Shown here one piece after another: positions 25,869 to 29,053 of a DNA stretch of 64,000 nucleotides. This stretch comes from Candidatus Pelagibacter sp. (GTDB lineage: Bacteria; Pseudomonadota; Alphaproteobacteria; Pelagibacterales; Pelagibacteraceae): NCBI RefSeq assembly GCF_052046145.1, contig NZ_JBNGZR010000001.1, forward strand, positions 1,031,199 to 1,095,198, read 5' to 3'. The position numbers and the translations under genes were made by a program. The notes beneath the pieces were generated by a model. The model was not told the origin of the DNA and ran no database searches. It was given only the letters and a program-made list of their open reading frames with translations. Each line of letters begins with the position of its first letter. The first letter of the stretch is position 1.

Positions 25869-27530
25869 ATGGCAAAAGTTGTTAAATTTGATGCTGAAGC
25901 AAGAGCAGCAATGATTAGAGGTGTAAATATCTTAGCTGACACTGTTAAAGTAACTTTAGGACCAAAAGGAAGAAATGTCGTAATGGATAAATCTTATGGT
26001 GCACCTAGAATTACTAAAGATGGTGTGTCTGTAGCTAAAGAAATAGATCTTGAAGATAAGTTTGAGAATATGGGTGCACAAATGGTTAAAGAAGTTGCTA
26101 GCAAAACTAACGATGAAGCTGGTGATGGAACCACGACTGCAACTATACTTGCGCAAGCTATTGTAAAAGAAGGTGTGAAGTATGTAACAGCTGGCATGAA
26201 TCCTATGGATGTAAAAAGAGGAATTGATGCAGCTGTAGAAACAGTAAAAGATAGTCTTGTTGCATCTGCCAAAAAGGTAAAAGACAGTGATGAAATTGCT
26301 CAAGTAGGAACAATTTCTGCAAATGGTGATAAAGAAATTGGAACTATGATTGCTAAAGCAATGCAAAAAGTTGGAAACGAGGGAGTTATTACTGTTGAAG
26401 AAAATAAAGGTATTGAAACAGAATTAGATGTAGTTGAAGGTATGCAGTTTGATAGAGGATATCTATCACCGTATTTTATTACTAACAGTGATAAAATGAC
26501 TACAGAATTAGATAATCCTTTTATTTTATTACATGAAAAAAAATTAACTAATTTACAACCAATGGTTCCTCTTTTAGAAGCAGTGGTTCAAGCTGGTAGA
26601 CCGTTAATGATTATTTCTGAAGATGTTGAAGGCGAAGCTTTAGCAACTTTAGTAGTAAACAAACTTAGAGGTGGTTTGAAAGTTGTAGCTGTTAAAGCTC
26701 CAGGTTTTGGTGATAGAAGAAAAGCTATGCTTGAAGATATTGCTATTTTAACAGGAGGTCAGGTTATATCTGAAGACCTAGGTATCAAACTTGAAAATGT
26801 TAAGCTTGATGATCTTGGATCTTGCAAGAAAATCAAAGTTGATAAAGATAACAGCACTATCGTTAATGGTAGTGGTAAAAAATCTGATATTGAAGCTAGA
26901 TGTGCTTCTATCAAACAACAGGTTGAAGAAACTACTTCTGATTATGACAGAGAAAAACTTCAAGAGAGACTTGCTAAGTTAGCTGGTGGAGTTGCAGTTA
27001 TCAAAGTTGGTGGTGCAACCGAAGTTGAAGTTAAAGAAAGAAAAGACAGAGTTGAAGACGCTTTAAACGCTACTAGAGCTGCCGTTGAAGAAGGTATTGT
27101 AACTGGTGGTGGATGTGCTCTTCTTTATGCTGCTCAAGAGCTTGATAAAGTTAAAGCAAAAGGTGATGACCAAAAAGCAGGTGTTGATCTAGTCAGAAAA
27201 GCATTGGAAGCTCCAATTAGACAAATTACTAAAAATGCTGGTGTAGATGGTTCAGTGGTAGTTGGTAAATTATTAGAGCAGAAGAAAAAAACTAACGGTT
27301 ACGATGCTCAAAACGAAGAGTATTGTGATATGTTTGCAAAGGGTATCATAGACCCAGTAAAAGTTGTAAGAACTGCTTTACAAGACGCTGCTTCAATTGC
27401 TGGATTATTAGTAACTACAGAAGCAATGATCGCTGACAAACCAGAGGAAAAAGATGCTGCTGGCGGAATGCCTGGTGGTATGCCTGGTGGTATGGGCGGC
27501 ATGGGTGGCATGGGCGGAATGGGAATGTAA
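25869..27530 (+). CDS. groEL: Chaperonin GroEL
   Basis: [31 protein letters not shown]-terminal GGM repeats. Confidence 0.99.
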
Positions 27531-27554
27531 TCGTTCCAACCCAAATCAAAATTC

Positions 27555-27585
27555 AAAAAGGGCAGATTTTACTGCCCTTTTTTTT
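27555..27585 (+). terminator. Rho-independent terminator after groEL
   Basis: AAAAAGGGCAG-ATTTTA-CTGCCC-T8; the A-tract suggests bidirectional use with the convergent hydrolase gene. Confidence 0.9.
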
Positions 27586-27600
27586 ACCCTAAACAAAAAT

Positions 27601-27622
27601 CTGCAATGAATGTTCAATGAAG
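27601..27622 (+). repeat. Tandem imperfect motif (left arm-site-like)
   Basis: CTGCAATGAA-TG-TTCAATGAAG, 11-nt period. Confidence 0.5.
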
Positions 27623-27692
27623 TTTTTAGAATCAAAAAACGGTGCTGAAGGCAACCCTAGTTTATTATTAACAACAAAGAGTAATTAATTTC

Positions 27693-28886
27693 TTAAGCAG
27701 GATTTGGACATTCTATTACTCTGCCCATAGAATCTCTCTCTCCACATTTTTTAGGTTGTTTCTTATAACCCAATGGTAAATATATTAAACTATGATAGTC
27801 GTAATTTCTTTCAACAGAATGAGCAGTAATAATTCTGTTATTATTAAAATCAATCACTACTTGTTGTCCGTAAGCACCATCCATCATTAAAATAGGTCTG
27901 TCTTCTAATCCGATTGGGTCAAAGTGAAACTGACCACCGTAAGTTTGTGCTGATCTATGATTGCCTTTATATATACTATACTCACCATGTTGTTTATCAA
28001 CTCTATTTTCATACATTGTTTTTAAATACTTACCAACGCAAGTATCATTGTTCCAATGAATCATCATCATGTTAGCAATTCTTACATAATCATATCTATC
28101 AGCATAGAAAGAATATCTTCCGTATTCACCAGATTTTCTGTTACCAGTTTTATTAGCATATAAAGTTTTATGAAAATAAACTCTTTTAGCAACTTTAGCG
28201 TCTTCTACAAATATCTTATGTAATAACTTGTTCCAGTTATCACCAGTTTTGTAAATAACATAGTTCATAATAACATTGGTTGTCATGGCACTATAGTTAT
28301 AATAAGTACCAGGTTCTAAACCATCAACATTTTTAAAGTATTTCTTCATAACTTTTTTGATAGGTATAGTATTAACATTAGGACCTTTACCTTTGATAGG
28401 GTTGTCCCATGCGTAAATTCTTTGTCCTACTATTTTATCATCACCTGCCTGCATATTAAGTAAGTTAATTAATTTTTGATTTTCATATAAAGTACCTTCA
28501 ACCGTTGGGTAATCTATTCTGTCATAAACAGTATGATTAATATAACCACCACACATTGCATAACCTGTAACTAAAGATACCAAAGACTTACCTATGGAAT
28601 GCGAAGGATATGGTCCCCGATATTTACTTTTTCTATTTTCATCAACTAAAATCTTATTGTTTTCAAATAAGATGTAAGAAACTAAACCAGTATCTTTACG
28701 TGATATTTGTTTTTTAACTTTTACAGATAATTTATTAGTTTGTAAATCAAACTCAAAATCATAGGTTTCATTTTTTTTATCACCTATTTTGTATTTGTGG
28801 TGACAATTAAAACAATATTTCTCACCAGCGAATGTTACGCCGACCATTATAAAGAAAGAAAGGATAAAATAAATAATTCTAGTCAT
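27693..28886 (-). CDS. Secreted beta-lactamase-fold serine hydrolase (class C/NylB-like)
   Basis: Signal peptide ending VTFA; SIGK (SxxK), YNYSA, DGAYGQQVVIDF; CFNCH just after the signal peptide. Confidence 0.8.
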   Translation of the reverse strand: MTRIIYFILSFFIMVGVTFAGEKYCFNCHHKYKIGDKKNETYDFEFDLQTNKLSVKVKKQISRKDTGLVSYILFENNKILVDENRKSKYRGPYPSHSIGKSLVSLVTGYAMCGGYINHTVYDRIDYPTVEGTLYENQKLINLLNMQAGDDKIVGQRIYAWDNPIKGKGPNVNTIPIKKVMKKYFKNVDGLEPGTYYNYSAMTTNVIMNYVIYKTGDNWNKLLHKIFVEDAKVAKRVYFHKTLYANKTGNRKSGEYGRYSFYADRYDYVRIANMMMIHWNNDTCVGKYLKTMYENRVDKQHGEYSIYKGNHRSAQTYGGQFHFDPIGLEDRPILMMDGAYGQQVVIDFNNNRIITAHSVERNYDYHSLIYLPLGYKKQPKKCGERDSMGRVIECPNPA

Positions 28887-28962
28887 TCAAATGTTGTATT
28901 GGAAATTTAACTCAACTCTTAAATGAAGTCACCTTTCTGTTTGCTTTCTATTTAGGGTGTTT

Positions 28963-28985
28963 CTGCAGTGAAGTTTGCAGTGAAG
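28963..28985 (+). repeat. Tandem motif (right arm-site-like)
   Basis: CTGCAGTGAAG-T-TTGCAGTGAAG, 12-nt period. Confidence 0.6.
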
Positions 28986-29053
28986 AAGTTAAATAAGTGA
29001 GTATTGGCGTAATATGTGTGTGAATGTAATCCCTCATTTTCTTGAATAAATTT

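Follow-up and report, generated by a model that had tools for sequence, protein, structure and literature searches.

We show here that an islet at the groEL stop codon of a SAR11 genome has been inserted relative to an empty site, that it shares its core and arms with many other cassettes, and that it has passed between lineages as a tract bounded by its cores. Cassette arrays and integrase-bearing elements occupy the same site in other SAR11 cells. The islet is best explained, with a probability of about 0.8, as an integrase-less, one-gene cassette resembling CIMEs, placed at the groEL core by site-specific recombination of a tyrosine integrase and moved in trans. Mobilisation in trans, taken by itself, is somewhat favoured, on the indirect basis of core-bounded transfer between genomes with 16% diverged groEL and of the tandem arrays. 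The islet, first described in a sequence-only reading of the window (the whole 64-kb stretch of DNA that was analysed), does not stand alone but is one member of a large system of cassettes and arrays.

No bacterial group in the ocean is more abundant than SAR11, whose genomes are streamlined. How its flexible genes are gained and swapped is a standing question. A recent study surveyed 61 genomic islands of one SAR11 genomospecies and reported a single integrase among them, with "no canonical mobile genetic elements" (PMC11796062). The present finding supplies a defined att site at a highly expressed essential gene, a recognisable 250-nt module and a candidate integrase family, and thereby makes the question of gene flow testable by metagenome tracking and recombination assays. 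It also provides a compact att/integrase pair whose source organism is very rich in AT, and a natural case of an element that carries its own terminator, protecting the expression of its target gene.

An islet between two copies of a 10-bp repeat

The features of the islet and its flanks are collected in Table 1. The two copies of GAATGTAATC, spaced 1,499 bp apart, are the only ones on either strand of the whole window; shuffled sequences are expected to contain 0.31 copies, and two or more copies appeared in 6 of 100 shuffles. Over the longer stretches TGGGAATGTAATC and TGTGAATGTAATC, 12 of 13 positions match. Exactly 22 nt separate each copy from a perfect 11-bp stem with a run of eight T residues, and both terminators (-15.7 and -15.8 kcal/mol, respectively) are bidirectional. 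The repeat, its coordinates and the spacing to the terminators were thus re-found as first described. The same holds for the lack of a sense gene at the second terminator: no plus-strand gene runs into it, because the sole gene between the repeats lies on the minus strand. The left terminator serves two genes, groEL, for which it replaces the native one, and the cargo gene.

Table 1. Coordinates of the islet and its flanks in the window
Feature	Position	Strand	Description
groEL	25869..27530	+	553-aa ORF with GGM-repeat tail; matches GroEL of 80 SAR11 loci at 94-100%
attL core copy GAATGTAATC	27523..27532	+	overlaps last codons of groEL, Met-stop, TAA
Cassette left end	27533..27590	+	22-nt spacer (CGTTCCAACCC...) and bidirectional terminator (stem 27555-27582, T8, -15.7 kcal/mol)
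Putative arm-type integrase sites	27603..27622	+	two CAATGAA(T/G) direct repeats, period 11
Cargo gene	27693..28886	-	397 aa
Cassette right end	28909..29021	+	TGCAGTGAAG twice (28964-28973, 28976-28985), box TTAAATAAGTGAGTATTGGCG (28989-29009), about 12 nt
attR core copy	29022..29031	+	L085 homology ends exactly at 29030; homology of the HIMB1746 integrase element begins exactly at 29022
Native groEL 3' UTR and terminator, displaced by insertion	29032..29087	+	stem 29054-29079

A dyad proposed to exist only in the rebuilt empty site proved weak, with pairing at 3 of 8 arm positions when ungapped and at 6 with a 2-nt bulge, and occupied left junctions hold dyads that are equal or better, such as GAATGGG-AATGTAATC-CCCATTA. 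The window had been read as free of an integrase, and a profile of the integrase family described below indeed found no match in any of the six frames over its whole length. Rfam searches of the whole window returned nothing at gathering thresholds and near the islet only weak, terminator-driven matches, implying that the right arm is not a known RNA.

Empty and occupied sites across SAR11

The empty site predicted by removing the islet in silico is present in SAG AG-457-N18 (L001), with one synonymous difference (GGT for GGC). This is the closest relative found; starting at the repeat, its right flank shows no difference from the window, including the displaced 3' UTR and terminator, which in L001 directly follow the groEL stop and are conserved in about 25 empty sites. 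The gap between groEL and typA measures 271 bp in the empty state versus 1,770 bp in the window. The two genomes differ by 4-8%, a divergence that does not imply a recent insertion or deletion. Some 30 other SAR11 genomes have an empty architecture like that of L001, with a single core and then the native terminator. Relatives without the hydrolase gene keep only the right-hand terminator and have their breakpoints at the 10-bp repeat; the left terminator is borne by the element, in line with the earlier proposal of a replacement terminator.

Across 80 SAR11 loci, the interval from groEL to typA comes in two states: a gap of about 271 bp, or one that contains 0.9-5 kb of varied cargo, which falls into 38 protein clusters. 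About 35 of these 80 loci are occupied. The native groEL 3' UTR of a sister subclade is identical to a left end of a common type. In a search of 185,579 species genomes, the right-end box was detected in Pelagibacterales only, and of the 33 new loci that carry it, 28 lie verifiably downstream of groEL and none demonstrably elsewhere.

A common attachment module and cassette arrays

The expectation that other cargoes would have the same ends was borne out by 52 distinct junctions, cassette-to-cassette junctions included, which carry the common core (G/A)AATGTAAT. It takes the form GAATGTAAT in 42 of them and AAATGTAAT in 6, and the same 9-mer is kept in 48 of the 52. Around the core extends a conserved module of about 250 nt. 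Two CAATGAAG-like repeats lie to one side of the core; to the other side lies a terminator, and behind it as many as three such repeats. The right arm (about 115 nt) comprises two CAGTGAAG repeats and a conserved box and is conserved whatever the cargo or its orientation. An nhmmer profile of the right end matched the window once (28909-29030, E 8e-26) and gave matches on 92 locus-strands overall. The left end of the window's cassette recurs after the core in many cassettes and at internal junctions of arrays. Individual arms are about 100-130 nt long and 75-95% alike between cassettes.

Behind the left terminator, the cassette of the window has two CAATGAA repeats, and other cassettes and the integrase-bearing elements have three, and all three matches to GCARTGAAK in the 64-kb window fall within the islet. 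The repeats behind the left terminator might be only remnants of the right end of an older cassette. Decayed remnants of this kind do exist (L015), but the same block of up to three repeats belongs to the left arm of integrase-bearing elements.

Cassettes range from 0.2 to 2.8 kb, mostly contain one gene and carry their cargo genes in either orientation. Arrays reach at least five validated cassettes, as in L123, with five cassettes in 4.2 kb, and L158 contains six right ends; the median distance between cores is 909 bp (n = 41). The predicted circle junction exists as a sequence: the 29-mer occurs verbatim in 19 metagenome contigs, and the junction sequence was counted in 31 contigs as the boundary of two different cassettes. 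Since arrays produce this sequence between different cassettes, it is no proof of a circle.

Transfer of cassettes between lineages

The cassette of the window is 98-99% identical to that of another SAR11 locus, L085, in which groEL is only 83.5% identical. In this comparison, identity is about 84% until the last ~12 nt of groEL, where it climbs to about 99%; homology stops at 29030. The tract of high identity spans both complete arms and ends at the outer edges of both cores. The reverse is also seen, in genomes whose groEL is 94-96% identical and whose cargo is just 79-84% identical. In L086, the cargo is 98% identical and the right arm diverged, which shows that homologous recombination also reshuffles cassettes.

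Integrase-bearing elements at the same core

A search for integrase-bearing elements with the same ends, as proposed in the sequence-only reading, found them at the same core in other SAR11 cells (L084, L115, and L081). These elements have homologous ends, measure about 9.5 kb or more and encode a tyrosine integrase with an N-terminal beta-sheet domain, a serine resolvase, and small unknown ORFs. In L084, the groEL stop lies at 2935 and the core at 12386. In L115, an acetyltransferase gene is present as cargo beside the right arm. The HIMB1746 element (L081; also L032) becomes homologous to the window at 29022 and carries an HNH-HIT gene beside its right arm; its size of more than 14.4 kb is a lower bound, the left end lying beyond the sequence covered. 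L117 and L118 contain integrase elements at the same core in inverted orientation, with coverage of the near end only. Among SAR11 isolates, HIMB1746 and Uisw_130 have an integrase element at groEL; HIMB1483 and HIMB1695 have cassettes only, among them the hydrolase cassette.

The integrase matches phrog_1 (1.4e-11) and passes the threshold of PF13102, and R235, K270, R346, H347, and Y378 are invariant. With an AlphaFold2 model (pLDDT 78.8) as query, a fold search matched XerA, Tn1549 Int, XerH, and Cre with a probability of 1.00. The protein is thus confirmed as a tyrosine recombinase by sequence match, invariant residues and fold. Sequence and profile searches of the PDB had returned only matches to S18, which were judged spurious, so that the fold search was needed. 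In public data, the candidate integrase family comprises 429 clusters at 90% identity. Neither a single-protein scan nor an alignment scan found relatives of the integrase in IMG/VR viral contigs. PHROGs matches in the elements are limited to two recombinases, which argues that the elements are not phages.

Proposed mechanism and alternative explanations

We propose that the attachment site is the core (G/A)AATGTAAT, which overlaps the last codon and the stop codon of groEL. In the occupied site, the left arm, with its 22 nt and terminator, re-terminates groEL, with the CAATGAA repeats next in line, and the native groEL terminator lies orphaned 1.5 kb downstream. The islet has att sites homologous to the arms of the integrase-bearing elements and a single cargo gene, without genes for recombination or transfer. 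The integrase could be supplied by elements of about 9.5 kb or larger that reside at the same core, with homologous arms, in other cells. By analogy to the scheme of lambda attP, it may bind the putative arm-type repeats and use the core as crossover site, and it might integrate, stack, and excise cassettes in trans, similarly to CIMEs beside a helper element. We infer the binding of the integrase to the repeats, the position of the crossover, excision as a circle, and a vehicle between cells.

The homology between the arms of the islet and those of integrase-bearing elements would also fit a scar, that is, a 10-kb integrase element that lost its integrase and backbone by internal deletion and was left immobile, with a single cargo gene between its arms. 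Remnants of decayed arms do occur, one of them at position 116 of the L015 interval, and integrase elements do carry cargo by the right arm (the acetyltransferase gene of L115 and the HNH-HIT gene of L081). However, a 1.5-kb cassette that is 98-99% identical including its arms, with breakpoints at the core, in a lineage with 16% diverged groEL requires either that decay preceded transfer or that the small form itself was transferred, and arrays of at least five single-gene cassettes (0.6-1.4 kb) with complete arms are hard to obtain by repeated independent decay. We therefore regard a scar as unlikely. The same transferred tract bears on the possibility that cassettes move by homologous recombination alone, with the arms or the groEL and typA flanks as portable homology and the core as an inherited duplication on which no recombinase presently acts. 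SAR11 recombines heavily, mosaic cassettes exist (L086, with the same cargo and a different right arm), and the arms, 75-95% alike, offer homology. An account of aquatic prokaryotes that mentions Pelagibacter describes replacement islands kept by homologous recombination (PMC4033161). Yet the tract shared by the window and L085 ends at the outer edges of the cores, neither within the arms nor in the flanking genes, and recombination between homologous sequences accounts neither for the same 9-mer at 48 of 52 junctions nor for integrase elements at exactly that point, which makes this explanation decidedly improbable.

Least probable, to the extent that we give it hardly any credence, is movement by a host recombinase. 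This would be XerC/XerD if the site were dif-like, on the model of IMEX or pdif modules, and an integron integrase if it were attC. The cassettes lack a recombinase of their own, and the layout of the arrays with their median of 909 bp resembles that of integrons. Inspection of the core region, however, revealed no 11-6-11 dif-like inverted arms: the flanks in ...ATATGTGTGT GAATGTAAT CGTTCCAACC... are not inverted repeats, as judged by eye against a generic 28-bp dif layout with a 6-bp spacer. The right arm, evaluated as single-stranded DNA, folds like shuffled sequences (z -0.26) rather than like attC, and it has direct rather than inverted repeats. The arrays begin right at the groEL stop codon and have no IntI gene or attI platform beside them, and the window contains no recombinase gene. 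The occurrence of cargo genes in both orientations and a dedicated integrase family at exactly the same site likewise speak against a host recombinase. An IS or MITE was rejected as well; no inverted repeat links the two termini, and the same "duplication" is present at all 52 junctions, which indicates identity of the target rather than duplication.

Comparison with known systems

In Streptococcus thermophilus, the CIMEs that are related to ICESt1 and ICESt3 and reside at the 3' end of fda are integrase-less, have attL and attR sites matching those of a helper element, and form arrays by tandem accretion with it. The SAR11 cassettes are similar in lacking an integrase, in having ends that match an integrase-bearing element, in residing at the 3' end of a housekeeping gene, and in forming arrays. 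They differ from CIMEs in their much smaller size (0.2-2.8 kb, in most cases a single gene), in stacks of at least five, and in a helper that is non-conjugative, and their mobilisation is putative.

The attP site of phage lambda combines a core with the arm-type sites P1 and P2 on one side and P'1-3 on the other. Likewise, the SAR11 module has a short core and direct repeats about 45-120 bp away, a pair on one flank and as many as three on the opposite one, and the SAR11 integrase has an extra N-terminal beta-sheet domain. In contrast to lambda, the repeats, which are putative sites, all have one orientation, a terminator is located in the arm, and the elements are not phages. Integron arrays share with the SAR11 arrays recombinase-less, mostly single-gene cassettes of about 1 kb, a repeated recombination module, and the tyrosine-recombinase superfamily. 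The SAR11 arrays differ in having no attC hairpin and no resident intI, attI, or Pc, in the terminator that each cassette brings along, and in the free orientation of the cargo; their recombination module, unlike that of integrons, is about 250 nt long and has its core between direct repeats.

Staphylococcal PICIs/SaPIs, such as SeCISE48, also insert at the 3' end of groEL, where their att site overlaps the end of the gene by 18 bp (PMC8125051). Common to both are the groEL target, an att site over the last bases of groEL (about 7-10 bp in SAR11), an intact chaperonin gene, and a tyrosine integrase. However, PICIs/SaPIs are autonomous satellites of about 15 kb with int, xis, replication, and packaging genes, none of which is present in the islet. 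Hosts and integrases of the two systems are unrelated, so the choice of target is convergent. Tycheposons of Prochlorococcus and the VEIME phage satellites of Pelagibacter are mostly found near tRNA genes, and HNH endonucleases have been described for Module 2 VEIMEs (PMC9618062, PMC11876622). They resemble the groEL elements in their tyrosine recombinase, size (about 5-15 kb), marine oligotrophic hosts, cargo, and repeated att remnants; the HNH gene of the HIMB1746 element is a further likeness to Module 2 VEIMEs, by description. In these two reports (PMC9618062, PMC11876622), we found groEL mentioned nowhere as a site, nor any arrays of single-gene cassettes that lack an integrase.

Taken further, and at somewhat less than even odds, SAR11 might possess a platform for cassette capture and exchange at the groEL stop that is integron-like and mechanistically distinct, in which free-standing cassettes of about 1 kb would each bring along an att module of lambda type, about 250 nt long and made up of core, terminator, and arm repeats. 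Integrases from satellite-like elements that share the site would serve these cassettes in trans, inserting and stacking them and exchanging them among lineages. If so, it would be a major route for flexible genes in a bacterium long described as devoid of canonical mobile elements.

The cargo gene

The cargo protein is hydrophobic in an N-terminal segment, and its S97-x-x-K100 motif is invariant. Sequence and profile searches against Pfam, NCBIfam, and the PDB yielded no direct match, and the AlphaFold2 model (pLDDT 36.5) was unusable. A profile search collected 471 representative relatives; out of 10 that are distant, 4 passed the PF00144 threshold over the homologous region. This supports, via remote relatives only, the assignment of the protein as a putative divergent serine hydrolase of the beta-lactamase fold. 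The earlier label of a hydrolase stands insofar as these relatives pass PF00144, and the cargo protein itself is without a Pfam match. Within the preferred reading of the islet as a mobilised cassette, the product would be a secreted or membrane-anchored hydrolase. The cargo gene with its leader is also present at unrelated loci that lack the att arms, where one copy is 93.8% identical at the nucleotide level.

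The groEL site in the window and its empty counterpart

The observation at the groEL stop codon is confirmed, and it extends to a site-specific cassette system found across SAR11. The short repeat at the ends of the islet (the core) occurs just twice in the 64 kb of the window, counting both strands (shuffle expectation, 0.31), and the similarity between the two ends extends to 12 of 13 positions. A strong hairpin follows each copy at a spacing of exactly 22 nt, as the sequence-only reading had described. Since the only gene between the cores lies on the minus strand, the right terminator has no plus-strand gene to stop.

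For comparison, 80 SAR11 (Pelagibacteraceae) loci were gathered via TypA, and groEL was then located in each (L-numbers below denote compared loci). The groEL-typA gap is about 271 bp in about 30 genomes and 0.9 to 5 kb in about 35 of the 80 loci, where 38 unrelated clusters of cargo proteins were distinguished. The single-cell genome AG-457-N18 (L001) reads ...GGTGGAATGGGAATGTAATCCCTCATTTTCTTGAATAAATTTAAAAGGCCATC...; starting at the repeat, it has the same sequence as the right flank of the window. It thus provides the empty site predicted from the window, one synonymous change apart and with its breakpoints at the repeat. The flanks of the two differ by ~4-8%, so the indel need not be recent. 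The proposed dyad unique to the empty site proved weak: without a bulge, only 3 of the 8 positions pair, and left junctions of occupied sites are equally or more symmetric.

The groEL tail is made up of successive GG(A/C/T)ATG (Gly-Gly-Met) repeats. Many right junctions have decayed copies of this motif (GAATGTGAATGT, TATGAGAGAATGT) ahead of the core, and attP/attB similarity therefore reaches a few codons into groEL. The stretch from the native groEL terminator, located 3' of the right core, to typA contains a 38-aa lysine-rich ORF (MSKRYSGKSFKDSSVKKKPKLSFKEKRKLKKDKQKKTN), which has no match in Pfam and is kept across SAR11 subclades with synonymous changes. One subclade carries a DEAD-box helicase gene in this region, and in L154, L157, and L166, which belong to more divergent lineages, the genes found after typA in the window come directly after the cassette array.

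Coordinates of groEL-site features, integrases and cargo relatives
Feature	Locus	Position	Strand	Remarks
groEL tail repeats	window	27453-27521		
Left core	window	27523-27532	+	GAATGTAATC (10-mer); spans final groEL codons and TAA
Left terminator	window	27555-27582	both	22 nt after left core; perfect 11-bp hairpin + T8; -15.7 kcal/mol
Cargo ORF	window	27693-28886	-	397 aa; sole gene between the two cores
Right core	window	29022-29031	+	GAATGTAATC; 1,499 bp downstream of left copy
Right terminator	window	29054-29079	both	22 nt after right core; perfect 11-bp hairpin + T8; -15.8 kcal/mol
38-aa ORF	window	29100-29216	+	
38-aa ORF, examples	L084; L115	12476-12589; 11843-11956		
Integrase	L084	10001-11230		within 9.45-kb element, which also has resolvase
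Inverted-backbone elements	L117; L118	10001-11511; 1547-3057		integrases 62-64% identical
53%-identical integrases	L082	2895-4331		beside tRNA-Leu(GAG)
53%-identical integrases	L083	1649-1957; 10001-11197		
DEAD-box helicase gene	L084; L115; L073	12585-14384; 11952-13754; 4117-5823	-	between att site with small ORF and typA
Armless cargo paralogues	L091, L092, L094, L095, L098, L112; L096, L097, L107; L099, L102, L110			
Armless cargo paralogue	L119	6001-7194		

Common core, arms and arrays

Wherever the native terminator is retained, a copy of (G/A)AATGTAAT lies 22-24 nt ahead of it, as seen with inserts of 916, 1,350, 1,472, 1,752, 1,763, 1,810, 1,997, and 4,644 bp. Among all sequences fetched, the core was found at 52 distinct junctions, reading GAATGTAAT in 42 and AAATGTAAT in 6. 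To the left of the right-hand core, a right arm of ~115 nt is conserved regardless of cargo identity or orientation; two tandem 10-12-nt CA(A/G)TGAAG-type repeats are followed by the box TTAAATAAGTGAGTATTGGCG and ~12 further nt. The left arm, which follows the core on the groEL side, comes in a few types and always includes a terminator, in many cases followed by up to three CAATGAA repeats. One common type has exactly the sequence of the 3' UTR and terminator native to groEL in a sister subclade (L065, L080), which fits the earlier idea of a replacement terminator. In a scan of 185,579 species genomes, the right-arm box was confined to Pelagibacterales; 28 of 33 new loci with the box are verifiably downstream of groEL or beside typA or its neighbours, and none is demonstrably elsewhere.

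Longer inserts contain internal right arm-core-left arm junctions (L015, L044, L049, L085, L106). The sequence predicted for a circle junction does exist, in 31 metagenome contigs (19 with the exact 29-mer), but all are boundaries between different cassettes. One of these contigs (L123) holds five cassettes in 4.2 kb, and the inter-core distance has a median of 909 bp (range, 175-2,800 bp; n = 41 non-redundant). Decay was also observed. The right core is fused straight to the small ORF in L087 (reverse complement, around 7336), and the native terminator is thus lost there; a truncated right arm immediately follows the left terminator in L015 (interval position 116), and arm fragments are joined to a terminator in L113.

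Integrase-bearing elements at the same site

In HIMB1746 (L032), homology to the window begins exactly at 29022, and groEL is absent within 6 kb upstream of typA. The insert codes for a protein of 402 aa that contains a phage-integrase SAM-like domain, as well as for an HNH-HIT protein and a serine resolvase. A scan with this integrase identified Uisw_130 (L084), and the context of integrase relatives yielded L115, L117, and L118. The Uisw_130 element extends from the groEL stop to ...GAATGTAATCCC and the native terminator. L115 is organised likewise, with a right arm that shows clear homology to the right arms of two integrase-less cassettes, L019 and L039. The integrases of L117 and L118 adjoin groEL in the opposite orientation. 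The left arms of integrase-bearing elements combine a terminator with three TTCAATGT(A/C) repeats; this groEL-side arm is unchanged in L117 and L118, where the resolvase-to-integrase backbone is inverted relative to groEL as compared to L084 and L115. The serine resolvase/invertase encoded by all integrase-bearing elements might flip the backbone.

The integrase family is large (429 clusters at 90% identity), and almost all of these clusters carry the annotation "hypothetical"; R235, K270, R346, H347, and Y378 are invariant. It matches phrog_1, and an AF2 model (pLDDT 78.8) matched XerA, Tn1549 Int, XerH, and Cre with probability 1.00. By analogy, its N-terminal three-stranded sheet is a putative arm-binding domain. 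The window itself encodes no member of the family, and no relatives were found in IMG/VR viral contigs. Relatives with 53% identity adjoin tRNA-Leu or sit near the tmRNA gene in other SAR11 genomes; one in L083 lies ~8 kb from the tmRNA gene in a single-cell genome (AH-324-N03) whose groEL site is empty (L007). Target choice has thus diversified within the family.

Horizontal transfer of the cassette

Between AG-915-C08 (L085) and the window, the cassette is 98-99% identical and the final kilobase of groEL only 83.5%. Identity climbs in the final ~12 nt of groEL and stops exactly at 29030, beyond which a different cassette follows in L085. Similarly, L086 encodes cargo 98% identical to that of the window beside a groEL only 79% identical, whereas genomes with 94-96% identical groEL have cargo only 79-84% identical. 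Judging from these identities, the window cassette was transferred horizontally in one piece. Such a tract, spanning both full arms and ending at both cores, is expected if a circular cassette integrates, but not from homologous recombination within the arms or the flanks. Homologous recombination nevertheless also acts on cassettes, as indicated by the diverged right arm of L086 and the armless cargo copy in L119.

Proposed mechanism and known systems

The interpretation of the islet as a trans-mobilised cassette or scar is supported by an empty site with breakpoints at the repeat, a common core and arms, integrase elements at the same site, and transfer as a unit. We propose a putative crossover core at the groEL Met-stop, where strands would be exchanged; its minimal shared part is ~ATGTAA(T). 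Direct repeats ~45-120 bp from the core on both sides might be bound by the integrase, by analogy through its extra N-terminal domain. The cassette would be excised as a circle and carried from cell to cell by a vehicle.

The short core, direct repeats on both sides, and integrase with an extra N-terminal domain resemble the lambda att system. Because the cassettes lack an integrase yet possess both arms, a CIME beside a helper element is their closest analogue. For target choice, it is the staphylococcal PICI family, with an att site overlapping the last 18 bp of groEL (PMC8125051). Array architecture and cassette size are reminiscent of integrons; however, SAR11 cassettes have no attC fold, no resident intI, and cargo in both orientations. 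A dif-like (Xer) site was considered and rejected, as the core region is not dif-like. Tyrosine-recombinase elements reported from Pelagibacter include tycheposon-like elements, VEIME satellites, and 585 mobilised regions, mostly near tRNAs (PMC9618062, PMC11876622), and a survey of 61 SAR11 islands described tRNA-linked cassettes and no canonical mobile elements (PMC11796062). In the literature searched, we found no description of the groEL att site or of its cassette arrays.

Cargo protein

The cargo protein is hydrophobic in an N-terminal segment, and its S97-x-x-K100 motif is invariant; the structure model was of unusable quality. Direct searches gave no Pfam, NCBIfam, or PDB match, yet a profile run against 1.84 billion representatives retrieved 471 relatives, and 4 of 10 distant ones passed the Pfam threshold for PF00144 (beta-lactamase) over the homologous region. 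Its assignment as a putative beta-lactamase-fold serine hydrolase is thus supported but indirect.

Relatives are encoded at 30 loci, 15 of them beside groEL (tblastn), and a 16th (L106) shows a cassette junction. The remainder occupy several other conserved loci without att arms; paralogues were found at at least four such SAR11 loci, e.g., 3' of a nuclease-like or hexapeptide-transferase-like gene. The armless L119 copy, situated at an unrelated locus between LysE and peptidase M23 genes, is 93.8% identical in nucleotide sequence to the window gene plus a 50-nt leader. These copies suggest that cassettes capture genes from the chromosome or release them.
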